Shown: positions 983 to 10,446, counted from the first letter of the stretch. The stretch is DNA of 11,056 nucleotides from a virus (IMGVR_UViG_2663763028_000004:1-11056), one strand, 5' to 3'. The notes: a model not told the origin generated them from the sequence alone. Made by a program: numbers and translations.

Positions 983-2359
983 TCATACGTCAGCCCCTTG
1001 TGCATATCGTCTGCCACGCGCAGCAGGTGCATTTGATGCTGTGCAAATCTGTCTGGCTTCATCCTGGTCACACGCAACAAAGTGTCCGTTGCAGAACCGC
1101 TGGTAAACCGTACCAAGCGAGCCAAAACGGTTTTTCGTCACGATGATTTCAGCAAATGGCGCGGCGCTACTGTTCTCGTCATATACCGCTTCCCGATAGA
1201 GCATGATGATTGAGTCTGCGTCCTGCTCAATGCTTCCTGAATCACGCAAATCTGCGTTTGTCGGGCGTTTATTTGGTCGCTTCTCAACATCGCGCGAAAG
1301 CTGACTCAGGGAGATAACAGACGTTTTCAGGTCTTTCGCCATCGCCTTCAGGCTTCCGGAGATGTGAGCAATTGCAAGGTCGTTGCGGTCTGCTTTCGGC
1401 TTCTCAATCAGGCCAAGATAATCCGCCATGATGAGTGACAGGTTTGGATTTTCCTGTTTGTGCCGTTCTGCGATTGAGCGTATTTCTTCGACCGATAACC
1501 GCGATGCATCGACTACCCATACATCCAAATCTGCAAGCTGACTCATGCCGTTAGCAACACGCGCCCAGCCTTCGTCATCCATCGATGCAGGATTTCGCAG
1601 CACGCTAACCGACATCCTCCCGGCGTTGGCAATGCTCCGCTCTGCAATCTGCAATGCGCTCATTTCCATTGAGAAAATCAATACTCCGCGCCGGACGTCA
1701 GAACCAGGAATAACGCGGCTTGCAACACCTTCGGCAATCTTCAGCGCCAGTTCGGTTTTCCCCATACCAGGACGAGCGGCGATAATCACCAGGTCTTCCG
1801 CGTTCATCCCTCCGGTGATAGCGTCAAGTTCTTCGATTCCGGTCTTCAGGGTATCGGACTCTTCTCCGTTCCTCAGACGCCTGTCAAGCGTGTCAGTGTA
1901 GTCAGTGATGATTTCACCTAACCGTACAGGTTTAACCTCGTCACGGGGCTTTCTGATGGCTGAGAGACGCTTTACAAGCTCATCCATCGCCTGACTCGAT
2001 GCGTCGATGGTTCCGCTCTGAATTGGTTCACGCATTTCGTCCATGATTTCCAGCACCAGACGGCGGTGATAGTTATCCGCGACCATTCCGGCATATCCCT
2101 TCAGGTTTGCGGCACTCGGGCAGTTTTTGCTGGTCATCAGGATTGACGTGAAATGCTCCTCTCCGCACGCCTCGGCAACCATCAGCGCATCGATTAGGTT
2201 TCTGTTTCTCGCCTGCTTGCGGATAACCTCGAAGGCTTTCCGGTAGAGTGGAATTGAAAACGCTTCCGGATCCAGCGTTGCCAGAACGTCGCTGGCGGTT
2301 GGTGTTAATCCACCAATCAGCAGGCCACCGATAACGCTCGCTTCGATATCCTGTCTCAT
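983..2359 (-). CDS. Replicative DNA helicase, DnaB family (phage P22 gene 12-type), replacing lambda P
   Basis: 458-aa track ORF; Walker A ARPGMGKT, Walker B-like LIMADYLGL, DnaB-like N-terminal domain. AGGGGGA RBS upstream; start overlaps the stop of the upstream O-like gene (ATGA). Confidence 0.9.
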
Positions 2360-3186
2360 GCAATCCCCCTGTCTGCAAACTTCCCTTCCCGTACTCCCGT
2401 TAACGAATCTTCCCTCAGCAGGTAATCAAAATCGGCCGTCCAGCCCGTGTCGTTGTCTCCGAAGTAAAACGGCTTGGCCTGATGCACAAACGCCCTGACA
2501 TACGCTCTGAAACCGTCCACGTTTGGCGTTTTCAGTTGCGGGATGATTTTCTTCAGGCGGCGTTTGCGTTTCTCGTTGACCGCAACAGCATGTGGAAGTC
2601 TGTCACCGACTTCGGTGTTGTAGGCGTTCAGGAAGGATTCGTAGTCGATTCGTTCTGCCTTGCGACGTTCAGGTTTAACCTGCCCATCGCCGCCCCCGTT
2701 AGGGGGTAAGGGGGTATTTGTATTTATTGTCTTTTGTATATTGTCTTTTGTGTTTGACTGATTCGGTAAATTGCTTTTTACCGATTTGGTGAAGGTTTGT
2801 TTTACCGAATTGGTAAATGTTTTACCGAATCCGTTAACTTTCGTTTTCCACTCGGAAATGTTTGTATTCATACCAACTTGACGCCCCACCTGAATGAGAA
2901 CTCCCATTCTGATAAGCTCGTTTTTGGCGGTAGAGCATTTGGTTGGTGCCATGCCAGTGAGTTCAGCGAACTGTTCGTTTCCGATCCAATCTATTTTTTT
3001 GTTGTAACCGTATGTCTTGCGCCACACAGCCATAACAATCAGTAACTGATGTAGAGTAAGTCCAGAAAGCATGGCGGCTTCTAACAGTGTGTTTGCAGTC
3101 CGAGTGTAGCCATCTTCGAGTTCTGCCACGCGATGCTCCACGACCTCCAGTTGAGGCCTGTAATCAGCTAACTTAACGACGCCCAT
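2356..3186 (-). CDS. O: Replication initiator, lambda O family (replisome organiser)
   Basis: 276-aa track ORF; N-terminal domain ([32 protein letters not shown]) resembles lambda O as I recall it. Low-complexity central linker ([15 protein letters not shown]) is encoded by the iteron array. Confidence 0.85.
2715..2838. repeat. Probable replication origin inside the O-like gene: iterons plus AT-rich tract
   Basis: Three direct copies of GTTTTACCGA(A/T)T starting near 2774, 2799 and 2819, one inverted copy (ATTCGGTAAA, 2761-2770), and an adjacent T-rich tract with tandem ATTGTCTTTTGT (2726-2750). Relative to O transcription the order is iterons then AT-rich tract, as in ori-lambda. Confidence 0.7.
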
Positions 3187-3334
3187 GTTTCACTCCTGCT
3201 TTGGCTAGTCTGTAAACACCAACAAGGCGCTCTGCGAACGCCCTGTTATTTGCTGCGGCTACCACTAATCCCTCAGGTGAATCAGGGTGTCGAATCTCTT
3301 CTTTTTCCTGGTATTTCTTACGACGTTTTGTCAT
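3173..3334 (-). CDS. Hypothetical small basic protein (53 aa) between cII and O
   Basis: Not in track (<60 aa). My translation: [59 protein letters not shown] Shine-Dalgarno 5 nt upstream; 3' end overlaps the O start. Confidence 0.4.
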   Translation of the reverse strand: MTKRRKKYQEKEEIRHPDSPEGLVVAAANNRAFAERLVGVYRLAKAGVKHGRR

Positions 3335-3344
3335 AATTACTCCT

Positions 3345-3421
3345 GTGGATTGATCCAGTAATTCCCTCAGAATTGCATATCAATTTGCTTAAAATCCTCG
3401 GTGGCGGCCGGGGATTTTTTC
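3345..3421 (+). ncRNA. oop-like antisense RNA overlapping the 3' end of cII (coordinates estimated)
   Basis: Extended -10 promoter TG-T-CATAAT (3329-3337) on the plus strand; plus-strand terminator hairpin CCTCGG/CCGGGG (3396-3413) followed by TTTTTT, inside and antisense to the cII 3' end. Same arrangement as pO/oop in lambda. Confidence 0.4.
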
Positions 3422-3663
3422 TTTGTGATTTCATCAAGCGCATACTTAAAAGCCCTGCTAATCGGACTGATGTCTGATGCCATTCCGAAAGCACACAAGA
3501 CCGAAGCAATAAATCTCCAGTCCGTTCTGCTTATCTTCGATTCATGACAGCCAATCATCTTTGCCAGACCGCGCTGTGTAAGCGTTGACAGGTTGATGAG
3601 TAAATCTGTTTCTGCGCGATCAACGTCGCGCTGTGATAGTTTGCTGTAACTTGTTTGTTCCAT
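3367..3663 (-). CDS. cII: CII-family transcriptional activator
   Basis: 98-aa track ORF in the canonical position downstream of cro and nutR; helix-turn-helix-like segment (GLAKMIGCHESKISR). Its start codon abuts a TTGC-N6-TTGT element, as in lambda. Confidence 0.8.
   Translation of the reverse strand: MEQTSYSKLSQRDVDRAETDLLINLSTLTQRGLAKMIGCHESKISRTDWRFIASVLCAFGMASDISPISRAFKYALDEITKKKSPAATEDFKQIDMQF
3394..3421 (+). terminator. Intrinsic terminator of the antisense RNA (tO-like), with bidirectional character
   Basis: 6-bp stem with one G-U pair, 6-nt loop, then a T6 run (3415-3420); A-run on the 5' side. Confidence 0.55.
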
Positions 3664-3673
3664 TTCTTACTAT
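3641..3673 (+). promoter_or_regulatory. pRE-like CII-activated promoter
   Basis: TTGC-tgtaac-TTGT-ttgttc-CAT (3641-3663) has the same spacing as lambda pRE (TTGC-N6-TTGC-N6-CAT, where CAT is the reverse of the cII ATG); candidate -10 TACTAT at 3668-3673 points toward cro/cI on the plus strand. Confidence 0.55.
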
Positions 3674-3697
3674 TTCCATGGGTAAATAATCACTAAT

Positions 3698-3715
3698 ACT
3701 CATCTTTCGATGAGT
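3698..3715 (-). terminator. tR1-position hairpin (7-bp stem, GAAA loop); terminator function uncertain
   Basis: ACTCATC-GAAA-GATGAGT on the minus strand between nutR and the cII RBS; no strong U-tract follows, so Rho-dependent or merely structural. Confidence 0.3.
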
Positions 3716-3727
3716 GCTTAATTAGTT

Positions 3728-3762
3728 ACCGCGTTGTCGGCGGTGCAGATTGATAAAGAGCG
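3728..3762 (-). promoter_or_regulatory. nutR (boxA + boxB)
   Basis: Minus-strand boxA CGCTCTTTA (complement of 3754-3762) directly after the cro stop; boxB hairpin ACCGC-CGACAAC-GCGGT (complement of 3728-3744) with a GACAA-containing loop, as in P22-type boxB. Confidence 0.65.
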
Positions 3763-3769
3763 GTGTTAC

Positions 3770-3997
3770 TTATGCAGCCAGAAGGTTCTTTTTGCTTATT
3801 TCAAGCATTTCGCTTGCTTGATATTTGCCACCAGAAATCTCTTCGATTTTTGATGCGTATTTAGTTTTCCCAAAAAACTCAGTCTTAGGGAGGAAGCCGT
3901 TTTTGAGCCACTTATAGACAGCCCTTTCGCTAACTCCACAAGCCTTCGCAACTTCAGGGATGCCGACACCTTTAATCGGCTCATCAAGATTTTGCAT
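3770..3997 (-). CDS. cro: Cro-like repressor (HTH)
   Basis: 75-aa track ORF transcribed divergently from cI across the operator region; HTH-like segment GIPEVAKACGVSERAVYKWL; AAGGA RBS 7 nt upstream. Confidence 0.8.
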   Translation of the reverse strand: MQNLDEPIKGVGIPEVAKACGVSERAVYKWLKNGFLPKTEFFGKTKYASKIEEISGGKYQASEMLEISKKNLLAA

Positions 3998-4075
3998 AGG
4001 AATATCCTTTTTCGTACTTTCAGTACGTATTATGGTTGAACTGAAAGTTTTTGCAAGTGCTTTAGTATCGTACTC
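3998..4075. promoter_or_regulatory. OR operator region with divergent pR and pRM
   Basis: pR candidate on the minus strand: -35 TTGCAA (4051-4056), -10 CATAAT (complement of 4029-4034). pRM candidate -10 TAGTAT (4063-4068) ends 8 nt before the cI ATG. Dyad elements: CGTAC-N5-GTACG (4013-4027); 9-mer ACTTTCAGT (4016-4024) with inverted copy ACTGAAAGT (4040-4048) flanking the pR -10; CGTAC again at 4069-4073. Confidence 0.65.
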
Positions 4076-4783
4076 ATGGTTCAGAATGAAAAAGTGCGCA
4101 AAGAATTCGCCCAGCGGCTAGCGCAAGCCTGTAAAGAAGCTGGTCTTGATGAACATGGTAGGGGGATGGCCATAGCCCGTGCCCTTTCTCTTTCGTCCAA
4201 AGGCGTTAGCAAATGGTTTAATGCTGAGTCTTTACCGCGTCAGGAAAAAATGAATGCGCTTGCGAAATTTCTAAACGTTGATGTTGTTTGGCTTCAGCAC
4301 GGCACTTCGTTAAATGGAGCGAATGATGAAGATACTCTTTCATTTGTTGGCAAATTAAAAAAAGGGTTAGTGCGCGTGGTTGGTGAGGCAATTCTTGGTG
4401 TTGATGGTGCCATCGAGATGACCGAAGAGCGCGATGGGTGGCTCAAAATTTATAGCGATGATCCAGATGCCTTTGGTCTTCGTGTGAAAGGAGACAGCAT
4501 GTGGCCTAGAATAAAATCAGGAGAATATGTACTCATTGAGCCTAACACCAAAGTATTCCCGGGTGATGAGGTGTTTGTCAGAACTGTTGAAGGACACAAC
4601 ATGATCAAAGTTCTTGGCTATGACAGAGACGGAGAATACCAATTTACAAGCATCAACCAGGACCACAGGCCAATAACGTTGCCTTATCATCAAGTAGCAA
4701 AGGTGGAGTATGTGGCTGGTATTCTGAAGCAATCTCGCCATCTGGATGACATCGAGGCAAGGGAGTGGCTGAAAAGTTCGTGA
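4076..4783 (+). CDS. cI: CI repressor (N-terminal HTH, C-terminal LexA-like S24 autopeptidase domain)
   Basis: 235-aa track ORF; C-terminal GDSMWP motif and a Lys about 40 residues later (S24 Ser-Lys dyad pattern); no Shine-Dalgarno before the ATG. Confidence 0.9.
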   Translation: MVQNEKVRKEFAQRLAQACKEAGLDEHGRGMAIARALSLSSKGVSKWFNAESLPRQEKMNALAKFLNVDVVWLQHGTSLNGANDEDTLSFVGKLKKGLVRVVGEAILGVDGAIEMTEERDGWLKIYSDDPDAFGLRVKGDSMWPRIKSGEYVLIEPNTKVFPGDEVFVRTVEGHNMIKVLGYDRDGEYQFTSINQDHRPITLPYHQVAKVEYVAGILKQSRHLDDIEAREWLKSS

Positions 4784-4843
4784 CTTCATCGTCACATAGC
4801 TGGTAACCAGTGGCCTGAAGAGACGTTTGGGTAAAGAGGATAG

Positions 4844-5097
4844 ATGGAGTTTAATGGCCATGAGTATCAAGCGGTCAAAAAGAAGTTCATCTATTCATTG
4901 AAAGCATAAGGCCATCTGAGTATATCCGTAATGATCTGGATATTGTCTATAACATCAATGACCGGACGATAGATATCGGTGAGCAGCGTCCTGTATGGCA
5001 GGGTGAGGCAGGTGAAAAAACGTCCTGCCATCAACAAGAATCAAGTGCATCCGCTCTCTGGACAGATGGAAAATTTATTGGATGCAAAAAGATATGA
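4844..5097 (+). pseudogene. Frameshift-split reading frame (about 84 codons if joined) downstream of cI
   Basis: ATG at 4844 with AAGAGGA RBS opens a 21-codon ORF (MEFNGHEYQAVKKKFIYSLKA). The -1 frame is open for 78 codons (4864-5097) with no ATG/GTG/TTG in frame. The two overlap at an A5 run (4877-4881) in the context C-AAA-AAG. Confidence 0.3.
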
Positions 5098-5335: not shown

Positions 5336-5857
5336 ATGGCAAAGTCAAACGTTAGCGTGCAGGCATTCAAGGACTTCCTTGAAGAGCTTATGTCGCTGAA
5401 CATAATGAAGGAGGCCACCGCTCGAAATTTAAAAAACTCATCCGCTCGCCTCTTAACGGTAGTCCAAGAAGAGGAAATGGGTGATGTTACTCAGCTTGAT
5501 GTGAATGAGCTTGCCGAGCGATACATCAACGCAACTGAGCCGAAGCCTAGCGACAGCAGCATTACTGCATATAAAAGCCGCATGGAAAGTGCAATCAAAA
5601 AGTTTGTAGCTTTCCAGTCTGGTGAAGAAATCCCATACACTCCGATTGACAAAGAATCCAGTGAGGAAAAAGATTTGACTGGCGAACCAACAAAAGTCGA
5701 AGGCAAGGCTAATGCACTTCATACCTATGATCTTCCAGTAGTTCTTCGACCTGAATCAGGGGTTACAGTAACGATTAAAGGCATTCCTAACGATATCACA
5801 AACGAAGAAGCCGAACGCATCTCTTCAATTCTGAAGGTTTACGTTCGGCCTCAATAA
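5336..5857 (+). CDS. Hypothetical acidic protein (173 aa), moron in the cI-pL interval; family not recognised
   Basis: Track ORF with purine-rich RBS (AGAGAGAGAGCAA-ATG). Same strand as cI, but separated from it by a terminator and followed by one. No hydrophobic segment and no motif I can assign. Confidence 0.7.
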   Translation: MAKSNVSVQAFKDFLEELMSLNIMKEATARNLKNSSARLLTVVQEEEMGDVTQLDVNELAERYINATEPKPSDSSITAYKSRMESAIKKFVAFQSGEEIPYTPIDKESSEEKDLTGEPTKVEGKANALHTYDLPVVLRPESGVTVTIKGIPNDITNEEAERISSILKVYVRPQ

Positions 5858-6153: not shown

Positions 6154-6160
6154 TCATCAA

Positions 6161-6186
6161 CCCGGCCTCAGCGCCGGGTTTTCTTT
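6161..6186 (+). terminator. Intrinsic terminator closing the moron unit upstream of pL
   Basis: Perfect 6-bp stem CCCGGC/GCCGGG with 6-nt loop, followed by TTTTCTTT. Confidence 0.6.
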
Positions 6187-6352: not shown

Positions 6353-6400
6353 CGTACCAATAGTTCTTGATAATATCGAACTATTGGTTCATTATTGTCA
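6353..6400 (+). promoter_or_regulatory. pL/OL candidate region
   Basis: Perfect 11-bp-arm inverted repeat ACCAATAGTTC-N11-GAACTATTGGT (6356-6388); candidate -35 TTGATA (6367-6372) and -10 CATTAT (6390-6395) with 17-bp spacing; CGTAC motif (6353-6357) shared with OR; sits about 40 nt upstream of nutL. Confidence 0.4.
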
Positions 6401-6441
6401 CGTCAGCAGGAAGCTGGAAGCCAAACGGAACAGATTGGCAG

Positions 6442-6475
6442 GCTCTTTAACTTCGATGGGGCGCTGACAAAGCGC
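6442..6475 (+). promoter_or_regulatory. nutL (boxA + boxB)
   Basis: boxA-like GCTCTTTAA (6442-6450) and boxB GCGCTGACAAAGCGC (6461-6475), which matches the P22 boxB sequence as I recall it; lies in the N leader. Confidence 0.7.
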
Positions 6476-6594
6476 AAACAGATACCAAACGAGATGGGTT
6501 TGTCGGTGATGTGAATTGCAGCTGCAACGACAGCAACCAGAAGATCAGCACCTGGCGCATCACCACCAAAGCCATTTCACATGAGGAAAACATC

Positions 6595-6930
6595 ATGACG
6601 GTAATCGTGTACGGGAAATCAACATTTGCAGGAAATGCCAAAACTCGCCGTCATGAGCGGCGCAGAAAGATGGCTATCGAGCGTGATGCCATCTGCAACA
6701 TCATTGATTCTATCTTCGGCACAGACAGTGAGGAACCTGTTCAGGAGGCCCCAAGAAAGCGTTTAAGCCTTTCTGAAAAAGCAATATCACTCGGAAGCCT
6801 TCGCTGCAAGAAGGCAGAAGAAGTCGAGCGTAAACAGAACCGTATTTACTACCGCAAGCCACGCAGTGAAATGGGTGTGACTTGTGTTGGTCGCCAGAAA
6901 ATGAAATTAGGCAGCAAACCACTTATTTGA
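6595..6930 (+). CDS. N: Antitermination protein N (P22 gene 24-like)
   Basis: Start chosen at the internal Met of track ORF 6511..6930 (GAGGAAAA RBS). N-terminus MTVIVYGKSTFAGNAKTRRHERRRKMAIERD contains the arginine-rich boxB-binding motif and is near-identical to the P22 N N-terminus as I recall it. Confidence 0.88.
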   Translation: MTVIVYGKSTFAGNAKTRRHERRRKMAIERDAICNIIDSIFGTDSEEPVQEAPRKRLSLSEKAISLGSLRCKKAEEVERKQNRIYYRKPRSEMGVTCVGRQKMKLGSKPLI

Positions 6931-6938
6931 GGTGATAT

Positions 6939-7409
6939 ATGACAATATCATGGAGCGTACCTTTTCCTGAATCAGAAACTGAACATGATGGAATGCCTGT
7001 TTTCTGGAGATTCCAGGCGACAGTTGAAGAAGATGGAATCAAAATATTCGCACTTCAATATATAGCTTTTCATCAGACAGAGCATTATGCATGGTTGGTT
7101 CCTGCGCATTGGATTGTTAATTTTAAACCAGCACCAAATCAGTGGTTACAGGAATGGAAACAAAAGAGAAATAGATATGCAATTAAGAAAGTAGCAAAAA
7201 ATGCAGAAAGATCTTTTGCATTCCCAACGAAGAAACTTGCCATTGAAAGTTTATTGCGCCGGAAGAAATACCATTTAATGAGAATCAAACAAGATTTGGC
7301 TGTTGTATCAACTCTTGTTGATGGGATGAAGAATATTGATACATCAACACCAGATATTGAATATAACTTTGGACACAACCAAGAAACAGAAAATTGGGTA
7401 TTTTATTAG
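6939..7409 (+). CDS. Hypothetical protein (156 aa), AT-rich, directly downstream of N
   Basis: Track ORF with GAGGTGA RBS, 8 nt after the N stop; visibly lower GC than flanking genes (roughly 35-40 percent by eye); no motif recognised. Confidence 0.7.
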   Translation: MTISWSVPFPESETEHDGMPVFWRFQATVEEDGIKIFALQYIAFHQTEHYAWLVPAHWIVNFKPAPNQWLQEWKQKRNRYAIKKVAKNAERSFAFPTKKLAIESLLRRKKYHLMRIKQDLAVVSTLVDGMKNIDTSTPDIEYNFGHNQETENWVFY

Positions 7410-7423
7410 TACAAATAAGCACT

Positions 7424-7451
7424 GTGTATTCATTCCAACGAGTGAATACAC
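7424..7451 (+). other. Perfect 9-bp-stem hairpin (GTGTATTCA / TGAATACAC, 10-nt loop) without U-tract
   Basis: Seen directly, 15 nt after the orf156 stop; function unknown. Confidence 0.5.
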
Positions 7452-7513
7452 GGAGCAATGTCGCTCGTAACTAAACAGGAGCCGACTTGTTCTGATTATT
7501 GGAAATCTTCTTT

Positions 7514-7540
7514 GCCCTCCAGTGCGTGAGGGCCTTTTTA
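7514..7540 (+). terminator. Intrinsic terminator (tL-like), first of a tandem pair
   Basis: Stem GCCCTC/GAGGGC with 8-nt loop, followed by CTTTTTA. Confidence 0.65.
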
Positions 7541-7553
7541 TATGCATACCAAT

Positions 7554-7576
7554 AACGCTTCACTCGAGGCGTTTTT
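7554..7576 (+). terminator. Intrinsic terminator, second of the tandem pair
   Basis: Stem CGCTTC/GAGGCG (one G-U pair) with ACTC loop, followed by TTTTT. Confidence 0.5.
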
Positions 7577-7602
7577 CGTTATGTATAAATAAGGAGCACA
7601 CC

Positions 7603-7743
7603 ATGCAATATGCCATTGCAGGGTGGCCTGTTGCTGGCTGCCCTTCCGAATCTTTACTTGAACGAATCACCCGTAAATTACGTGACGGATGGAAGCGACT
7701 CATCGACGTACTTAATCAGCCAGGAGTTCCCAAAAATGGATAA
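7603..7743 (+). CDS. cIII: CIII (FtsH inhibitor stabilising CII)
   Basis: 46 aa from the internal Met of track ORF 7522..7743, AAGGAG RBS at 7591-7596. MQYAIAGWPVAGCPSESLLERITRKLRDGWKRLIDVLNQPGVPKNG is near-identical to lambda CIII residues 1-46 as I recall them. Confidence 0.85.
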   Translation: MQYAIAGWPVAGCPSESLLERITRKLRDGWKRLIDVLNQPGVPKNG

Positions 7744-9637: not shown

Positions 9638-9805
9638 ATGAGAGGACTTGCATACAATCCCGGCATTCTTCCGGCAGAAATGATTATTCGCCAACGCGTA
9701 AAGCCAATGCCATCGAGAGAGGAATTGCTTAAGAGAAAGAGTTTCGGTTCTGTTAATGACAACAAATATCTGAATGCGATGTGGCGTAAAGGAGGCAGCC
9801 AGTGA
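9638..9805 (+). CDS. Hypothetical protein (55 aa)
   Basis: Internal Met of track ORF 9605..9805 with GAGGA RBS 7 nt upstream; its stop overlaps the next start (GTGA). Confidence 0.4.
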
Positions 9806-10446
9806 ATAACCGTTTTTACATGATGTGCTTGCGTGAAACTGTGGGTAATAACGCCTCATTCCATTGCCATAACGGCAATGGTTACAGTTCTGATATCGAT
9901 CGCGCTCATGTTTACACGCTGGAAGAAGCCCAAAAATCCTGGAATTGTGGTCGAGATATCGATCAGCCTGTTTGCGCTGATAGCGTGGATGCAATGGCTG
10001 TGTGGCACGTTGATTGCCAGTACATCCCTACAGAAAGCCTGATTGAGCCAGATTGTACTGCGTATGTGGCCTACAAAAAAGGTAGCTGGAACGGCAACGA
10101 TGTTTACTGGCTTCAACACGGTGGATTGCCAACAGATGACTTCAGTAAAGCGACCATCTTTAGCGTCGCCAACAAAAACGAACCAGGAATAGTTTGGTTG
10201 CCATTTTCCATTGCTGATGCAGCAAAGCACCGGACGTTCAATATCAATAACTTTAACCGCAGAACAATGGTTCAGGGCGCAGGTTTGGTCATGCCTGACT
10301 GGTTGAAAGAGCAGAACAGAAGAAAGAAGTCGCGAAGCGGGAAGGTGCGTTGGAATTGTCCGCATTGCGGAAAAATAACCTGGCAGTACAGCCCATATGA
10401 TTTTGAAGGCTGTCGTGATTACAACTGTGAAGGATGGCGAGAATGA
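9802..10446 (+). CDS. Hypothetical Cys-rich protein (214 aa) with C-terminal CPHCGK...C...C zinc-ribbon-like motif
   Basis: GTG start preceded by strong AAAGGAGG RBS; translationally coupled on both sides; multiple Cys/His clusters. Confidence 0.7.

Follow-up and report, generated by a model that had tools for sequence, protein, structure and literature searches.

ORF156, an uncharacterised accessory gene of the N-to-cIII interval in the early-left operon of lambdoid Shiga-toxin phages

The early-left operon of lambdoid phages carries small accessory genes in the interval between the antiterminator gene N and cIII, and several of these have been described. Ral is a known restriction alleviator, and its gene is located in lambda past sieB and orf28, which we take to be beyond the terminator tL1. 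The lambda sieB gene lies just past N, while lambda Ea10 and P22 gp17 are further cargo of the same interval. Among phages encoding Shiga toxin (Stx) 2a, the place just past N can also be taken by a gene of the Nmad5 family (PF18757), in which a point mutation lets Dhillonvirus phages escape the Tmn defence (PMC11846954). Here we describe another occupant of this interval, an open reading frame (ORF) of 156 amino acids (aa) that we term ORF156. It is encoded in an 11,056-nucleotide (nt) stretch of viral DNA, IMGVR_UViG_2663763028_000004 (the window; Table 1), which comprises the immunity and early region of a lambdoid, Shiga-toxin-type phage. The + strand of the window corresponds to the leftward direction of lambda, and its closest DNA matches are the Stx2a phage Stx2_EH0505 and phage TL-2011a, both at ~97% identity across 65-69% of the window. 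ORF156 is an uncharacterised member of the exchangeable accessory genes of the lambdoid early-left operon. Databases already list it as a hypothetical protein and its family, PHROG 1636, has no assigned function; a literature search based on locus tag, accession and PHROG number turned up no paper about it.

When compared with the described genes of the interval, ORF156 shares their location but belongs to none of their families. Like ral, it is a small, dispensable and patchily distributed accessory gene situated between N and cIII. However, annotated ral genes measure only 201 nt, ORF156 precedes the first intrinsic terminator, and no Pfam, NCBIfam or PHROG match connects it to Ral. Both genes coexist in phages phi367 and phi296, hence they are not alternatives to one another. 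ORF156 occupies the same map position as lambda sieB, yet it exhibits no homology to the SieB proteins of lambda or P22 (Pfam) and is predicted to be a soluble basic protein. Ea10 and gp17 are similarly unrelated at the profile level, and the possibilities that ORF156 is a diverged Ea10 or a diverged gp17 were both rejected (hhalign probabilities of 0.1% and 1.6%, respectively). Nmad5 genes likewise start just past the N stop codon in Stx2a phages having the same N allele, but they encode an unrelated family of ~206 aa and ORF156 has no PF18757 match. Two other classes of phage protein were considered and dismissed as well: DNA-mimic anti-restriction proteins of the Ocr or ArdA type, since ORF156 lacks their strong acidity, DNA-like charge pattern and structural similarity, and the anti-Tmn protein of phage SMS22, whose described topology differs in having its helices first and its sheet last.

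In the window, ORF156 is closely joined to N. Exactly 8 nt (6931-6938) separate the N stop codon TGA (6928-6930) from the ORF156 ATG, and an 8-nt Shine-Dalgarno sequence overlapping that stop would couple ORF156 translation to that of N. The segment TTATTTGAGGTGA(T/G)ATATG is conserved in phages BP-4795, H-19B and phi367. A previous reading of the window, made from its sequence alone (the sequence-only reading), had pointed out both the short gap and the good ribosome-binding site, and both are evident. It had also delimited the feature as 6939-7451, of which the start stands, while the coding region ends at 7409 and the remainder up to 7451 is a hairpin. Upstream of N, a pL-like promoter is surrounded by a perfect palindrome that is likely the oL operator, and homology to phage 21 DNA starts at approximately 6403, which is the annotated pL start in the record of that phage. 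These are followed by nutL, whose boxB is presumably of the P22 type, matching the arginine-rich motif GNAKTRRHERRRK of N. The open frame of N spans 6511-6930 and a P22-type start, MTVIVYGK, sets the beginning of the gene at 6595.

From this arrangement, several predictions can be made regarding the expression of ORF156. Firstly, it should belong to an immediate-early pL unit: it is on the same strand as pL and nutL and downstream of both, the terminator scan was negative for the + strand from pL to 7514, and intrinsic terminators occur only after ORF156. G exceeds C throughout ORF156, and therefore it is expected to be a poor substrate for Rho loading. Together, these features support the synthesis of ORF156 along with N from an N-independent transcript of ~1.1 kb running from pL to the first intrinsic terminators, as the sequence-only reading had proposed. 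Having replaced the sieB-orf28-ral segment of lambda, ORF156 would thus join the pL transcript through N and be produced before antitermination. Secondly, ORF156 is probably silent in lysogens, because the scan for + strand promoters detected none from 6400 to 7410 and because the terminator at 6159-6180 should insulate pL from the cI transcript. This bears directly upon the exclusion function that the sequence-only reading had considered plausible, and upon the wider notion of a prophage-borne protein for exclusion, defence or toxic abortive infection in the manner of SieB or Rex. The position of sieB in lambda, the AT-rich and horizontally mobile character that ORF156 shares with many morons, and its abundance among Escherichia coli prophages (563 of 5426 genomes) would all be compatible with such a role. 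However, a gene located 3' of a repressed pL, with no promoter found to express it from the repressed prophage, is ill suited to protecting a lysogen. Furthermore, the protein has no match to SieB or to any other Pfam family and no hydrophobic membrane segment is seen in its sequence; a PADLOC search yielded only a negligible match (Cas1_II, E = 0.0097, 13 bits), and a relative is encoded by a virulent phage. We therefore consider an exclusion function to be very unlikely. ORF156 only partly resembles a classical moron, as it exhibits the deviant base composition (35.7% vs. 46.2% GC for the window), but neither a promoter of its own in the scan nor a terminator of its own, the terminators being lambda backbone spacers.

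ORF156 is a true gene under strong purifying selection. All of its residues (1-156) align to positions 1-156 of the PHROG 1636 profile (E = 3e-111), and it is encoded in 83 phage records, nearly all at 95-99% identity, including H-19B, BP-4795 (ORF18), phi24B (vb_24B_11c) and numerous Stx1a and Stx2a phages. Several carrier records leave it unannotated; for example, it is intact at 98-99% identity in H-19B (AF034975, 1715-2182) and in many Stx1a records of the LC6454xx and LC7441xx series. The complete cassette occurs in 563 of 5426 complete E. coli genomes, and full-length orthologues of 57-85% identity are found in Cronobacter, Pectobacterium, Brenneria, Rosenbergiella and a Symbiopectobacterium; counted over five genera, the full-length orthologues span 57-98% identity. 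Among the E. coli copies dN/dS ranges from 0 to 0.16, with nearly all changes falling at the third codon position (e.g. 0/0/11 for the three positions), whereas between genera dN is ~0.3 and synonymous sites are saturated. The sequence-only reading had described the ORF as more AT-rich than its neighbors, which proved to be correct: the GC content of ORF156 is 35.7% (27% at third codon positions, GC3), compared to 47.5% for N (GC3 51%), 47.5% for cIII and 46.2% for the window. The GC content of ORF156 is likewise lower than that of its flanks in Pectobacterium, Brenneria and Cronobacter. One could argue from the truncated versions present in the databases (phrog_18686 and phrog_37429, both covering the N-terminal part only, along with many partial proteins) that ORF156 is a decaying or non-functional passenger, retained through its linkage to N and the terminators. 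However, the maintenance of full length across genera despite saturated synonymous sites, the strong purifying selection and the confident fold prediction obtained from co-variation (see below) leave this explanation with almost no credibility, and we disfavor it.

When the N-to-cIII interval is compared among related phages, it proves to be a hot spot of exchangeable accessory genes. Relative to lambda, ORF156 takes the place of sieB, orf28 and ral, and ea10 is missing too. The sequence-only reading had compared the site with the lambda neighborhood of ral and sieB, correctly in outline, and had further suggested examining whether phages with the same N carry different cargo at this site, and this is indeed the case. 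In the Stx2a phage Stx2_4151 (LC616037), the same N allele is followed just past its stop codon by a gene with an Nmad5 domain (PF18757, E = 9e-58). An insertion sequence interrupts the Stx2_4151 Nmad5 gene (locus coordinates 3090-5040) and carries minus-strand transposase ORFs at 3247-4137 and 4134-4409. The same layout may be shared by the many O157 Stx2a phage records whose match to the window stops where N ends. Phage 21, the early-left region of which matches the window only in part, carries ral directly after its own N. Phage phi367 has both genes, with ORF156 placed after ral and inserted just 5' of the hairpin. Its copy sits inside the lambda-type ral-ea10 spacer and is flanked on either side by GCACTG, preceded by AATAA (locus coordinates 2540-2590 and 3058-3085), which suggests insertion via microhomology. 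In BP-4795, H-19B and phi24B, ORF156 follows a different N and is itself followed by ea10 or gp17. There, 58 nt separate ORF156 from the stop codon of the H-19B-type N, and 51 nt of them are a remnant left from the 3' end of the window-type N (locus coordinates 3943-4000 in BP-4795 and H-19B, aligned to window positions 6880-6930). This remnant marks an old recombination joint inside N; therefore, ORF156 was once transferred together with the tail of a window-type N. In phage Bas106, a 54-aa ORF separates N from ORF156. Outside E. coli, the gene lies between N and cIII in Cronobacter, and directly 5' of xis-int, distant from any N, in Pectobacterium and Brenneria. Thus, ORF156 is always found within the leftward early operon, with adjacency to N restricted to the phages of E. 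coli and Cronobacter.

These arrangements are particularly relevant to the idea that ORF156 modulates the lysis-lysogeny decision or N antitermination, acting via N, the Nus factors or RNA polymerase, or CII/CIII. Several observations could be taken in its favor: 1) the translation signals of ORF156 are coupled to N in the window, 2) ORF156 follows N in many Stx phages and is the nearest called gene after N in Cronobacter, 3) the N remnant of the H-19B-type phages implies a joint transfer in the past, and 4) there is a precedent in the small pL-operon genes orf63 and ea22, which reportedly bias the developmental decision (PMC10869804, PMC7093339). Despite these parallels, ORF156 follows three different contexts (a P22-type N, an H-19B-type N and ral), and the Pectobacterium and Brenneria copies are far from N. 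Moreover, a relative is encoded by a virulent N4-like phage devoid of lysogeny and N-type antitermination, and fold relatives occur in unrelated phages. A role in the developmental decision or in N function is consequently unlikely in our estimation.

The ORF156 protein contains seven tryptophans and an acidic N-terminal third, whereas residues 61-131 are basic (18 Lys/Arg vs. 5 Asp/Glu). As the sequence-only reading had stated, it resembles nothing recognizable: single-protein searches of Pfam, NCBIfam, PADLOC and PDB returned nothing informative, and the protein matched PHROG 1636. An exhaustive profile search revealed a wider family of ~130-155 aa proteins with 20-27% identity to ORF156, tied to it by reciprocal BLAST links. 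The relatives fall in PHROGs 13631, 25384 and 28215, and 56 of the 66 aligned family members also match phrog_13631. These three uncharacterised PHROGs (~100-190 aa) are distant homologues that resemble ORF156 in fold, but lack its N-terminal 18 residues and in many cases its C-terminal FGHNxETExW tail as well. Their hosts are Pseudomonas, Vibrio, Achromobacter and marine bacteria, with a virulent N4-like phage among the carriers. Only G33, T47, K87 and A101 are near-invariant across the wide family, and no catalytic-looking motif is conserved in the 66-sequence alignment. A profile of the 66 members likewise retrieved nothing useful from Pfam or PDB, and no fusion or named homologue was found in any relative searched.

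An AlphaFold model built upon the 66-sequence alignment is confident, with a predicted local distance difference test score (pLDDT) of 94.3 and a predicted template modeling score (pTM) of 0.81; an initial model from close homologues only reached a pLDDT of 58 and was not used. ORF156 is predicted to form a stand-alone, single alpha/beta domain composed of a long N-terminal sheet of three strands (residues 19-55), a pair of short helices, a small beta-hairpin (83-95) bearing the conserved residues K84, K87 and R91, and a 33-residue basic helix (98-130), with the C-terminal tail packing back onto the domain. Among solved structures, the model has no significant match, and its fold relatives are uncharacterised phage proteins only, one of them from a virulent N4-like phage; BFVD models of distant relatives share the fold at template modeling (TM) scores of 0.44-0.65. 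Hence, the homology and structure searches that the sequence-only reading had called for disclosed neither a homologue of established function nor a solved-structure match.

The genomic settings of the wider family are also informative. Relatives are always found in early operons, whether beside N (Cronobacter), beside xis-int (Pectobacterium and Brenneria) or among methylase and HNH genes (Pseudomonas and marine prophages). In Pseudomonas phage Cruim01 and two prophages, the relatives have HNH or DNA methylase genes close by. The virulent N4-like Achromobacter phage phiAxp-3 encodes a 120-aa relative (11978-12340; phrog_13631, hidden Markov model E = 7e-10) in its early-to-middle region, located between an ATPase gene and an HNH-annotated gene; a placement of this relative between RNA polymerase subunits proved to be wrong. 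No neighboring gene is conserved among ten loci, the only recurrent element being a 43-44 aa ORF common to two of them. Such settings lend some appeal to the notion that ORF156 is a nucleic-acid-binding helper of phage replication, recombination or early transcription that is not aimed at host immunity. The basic center and long helix of the protein, its conserved K84, K87, R91, R107 and K109, and the location of relatives among recombination, single-stranded DNA-binding protein (SSB), methylase and HNH genes, including the ATPase and HNH neighbors in the N4-like phage, would all fit. However, an RFAFxTKxxA motif that offered a lead toward an AP2-like DNA-binding domain came to nothing (hhalign probability of 0.6%), there is no conserved partner gene, and ORF156 is patchy and swapped for unrelated cargo in phages with the same N and recombination module, which would be unexpected for a core function. 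We regard a helper function as doubtful.

Our tentatively favored reading, to which we assign somewhat less than an even chance, is that ORF156 is an early binding factor directed against a host component or nucleic acid, serving either host takeover or counter-defence. It is based upon the absence of a catalytic signature, the conserved basic face, the absence of a partner gene, the predicted early expression, the presence of family members in both temperate and virulent phages, and the occupation of a slot otherwise used by Ral and Nmad5. ORF156 would thus work by binding rather than catalysis, it would meet its target, a host protein or nucleic acid, at an early point of lytic growth, and it would be silent in the repressed prophage. 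Since the virulent N4-like phage carries a relative, such a role would not be specific to lysogeny. Certainly, a number of observations weigh against the binding-factor interpretation. The databases searched contain no ORF156 homologue with an assigned function, and a published DefenseFinder scan of the ORF156 carriers phi296 and phi367 listed no anti-defence genes other than methyltransferases, Ral and Gam. Not all family members adjoin N, as the Pectobacterium and Brenneria copies illustrate, and the existence of truncated copies implies that ORF156 is dispensable in some prophages. Guilt by location is weak evidence as well, given that the interval is also home to genes with unrelated roles, ea10 and sieB among them. 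Lastly, expression prior to antitermination could be curtailed by Rho-dependent termination.

A broader version of this proposal is possible, albeit somewhat doubtful: ORF156 and its relatives (PHROGs 1636, 13631, 25384 and 28215) could constitute a widespread, phage-specific family with a fold absent from solved structures, whose members act as early inhibitors of a host immunity or housekeeping target and which moved into the N transcript of Stx phages in order to act first. Nothing in the analysis points to an unusual mechanism for ORF156. Its potential significance stems from its presence in many Shiga-toxin phages (H-19B, BP-4795, phi24B and numerous Stx1a and Stx2a phages) and in roughly one-tenth of complete E. 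coli genomes, while the transcript it would share with N ahead of the first terminators makes it a candidate for a function needed at the very start of infection or induction. If ORF156 does disable a host defence or process, it would add a new fold to the known phage counter-measures and could influence the spread of Stx phages between E. coli strains. If it were instead dispensable in every assay, it would be one more lambdoid accessory gene.

Table 1. Coordinates of ORF156 and of the surrounding genes and signals in the window.
Feature	Position	Strand	Basis and remarks
cI	4076-4783	+	
173-aa ORF, phrog_2602	5336-5857	+	Terminator 6159-6180 follows
Terminator 3' of 173-aa ORF	6159-6180	+	Terminator scan; ends cI transcript
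Perfect 11+11 bp palindrome around pL-like promoter	6356-6366 / 6378-6388		Inverted repeat
pL-like promoter	-35 TTGATA 6367-6372; -10 CATTAT 6390-6395	+	Promoter scan
nutL boxA, GCTCTTTAA	6442-6450	+	Read from sequence
nutL boxB hairpin, GCGCTGACAAAGCGC	6461-6475	+	Read from sequence
Antiterminator gene N, 111 aa	6595-6930	+	PF25694 N_peptide E = 1.8e-26; phrog_271 E = 2e-45
ORF156 Shine-Dalgarno, GAGGTGAT, 8 nt	6929-6936	+	Overlaps N stop codon
ORF156, 156 aa, 18.6 kDa, pI 8.8	6939-7409 (including stop)	+	ORF list; PHROG 1636
Hairpin, 12 bp (9 perfect pairs, one G-U, two further pairs), loop CAAC, no T run	7424-7451	+	Fold
First intrinsic terminator, GCCCTCC...GAGGGC plus T run	7514-7541 (scan site 7514-7533)	+	Scan of window and lambda
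Second intrinsic terminator, AACGCTTCACTCGAGGCGTT plus T run	7554-7580 (scan site 7554-7573)	+	Scan; lambda ea10-cIII homologue
cIII leader thermosensor (Rfam RF01804, Lambda_thermo)	7590-7648	+	88.5 bits
cIII	7603-7743	+	PF02061 E = 3e-30; first gene past both terminators; 47.5% GC

Downstream of ORF156, the perfect 9-bp hairpin and the two terminators before cIII that the sequence-only reading had reported are all present, and the 201-nt region 7400-7600 folds far more stably than its shuffles (z = -5.5). The hairpin and terminators belong to the lambdoid backbone and not to the ORF156 insert, because they correspond to spacers of lambda itself. The noncoding segment 7419-7541, which comprises the hairpin and first terminator, is essentially identical in alignment to the lambda ral-ea10 spacer, the hairpin itself being fully identical there, and a terminator is likewise annotated between ral and ea10 in the record of phage 21. 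The second terminator corresponds to the lambda ea10-cIII spacer and is present 5' of cIII in the Cronobacter prophage too. Segment 7419-7545 alone matches 2238 of the 5426 complete E. coli genomes, four times as many as carry ORF156. Presumably, the signals between 7419 and 7580 are members of the lambda tL2 terminator cluster. As the 12-bp hairpin lacks a T run, it could be an RNA processing site, a pause site or a part of the terminator cluster.

The remainder of the window exhibits additional features of lambdoid organization. Beyond cIII, the gene order is kil, a small recombinase-annotated ORF, a Sak4-like annealing protein, SSB, Abc2 (anti-RecBCD), a 214-aa ORF and an Ea22-like protein. 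The replication module occupies 983-3186 on the minus strand and encodes an O-like initiator together with a 458-aa helicase that is of the DnaB type, as judged by its sequence motifs alone, instead of a lambda P-type loader. The 173-aa ORF between cI and pL encodes an acidic protein that has no Pfam match and is followed by a strong terminator. Its rex/sieB-like position, which is expressed in lysogens, is taken by a HigB-type toxin gene in BP-4795 and by the Stk kinase in phi24B. The 173-aa ORF is a candidate for a prophage-expressed function. Lastly, the 214-aa ORF between abc2 and the Ea22-like gene (9802-10446; phrog_2457, without a Pfam match) contains a C-terminal CPHCG...C..C motif that resembles a zinc ribbon.
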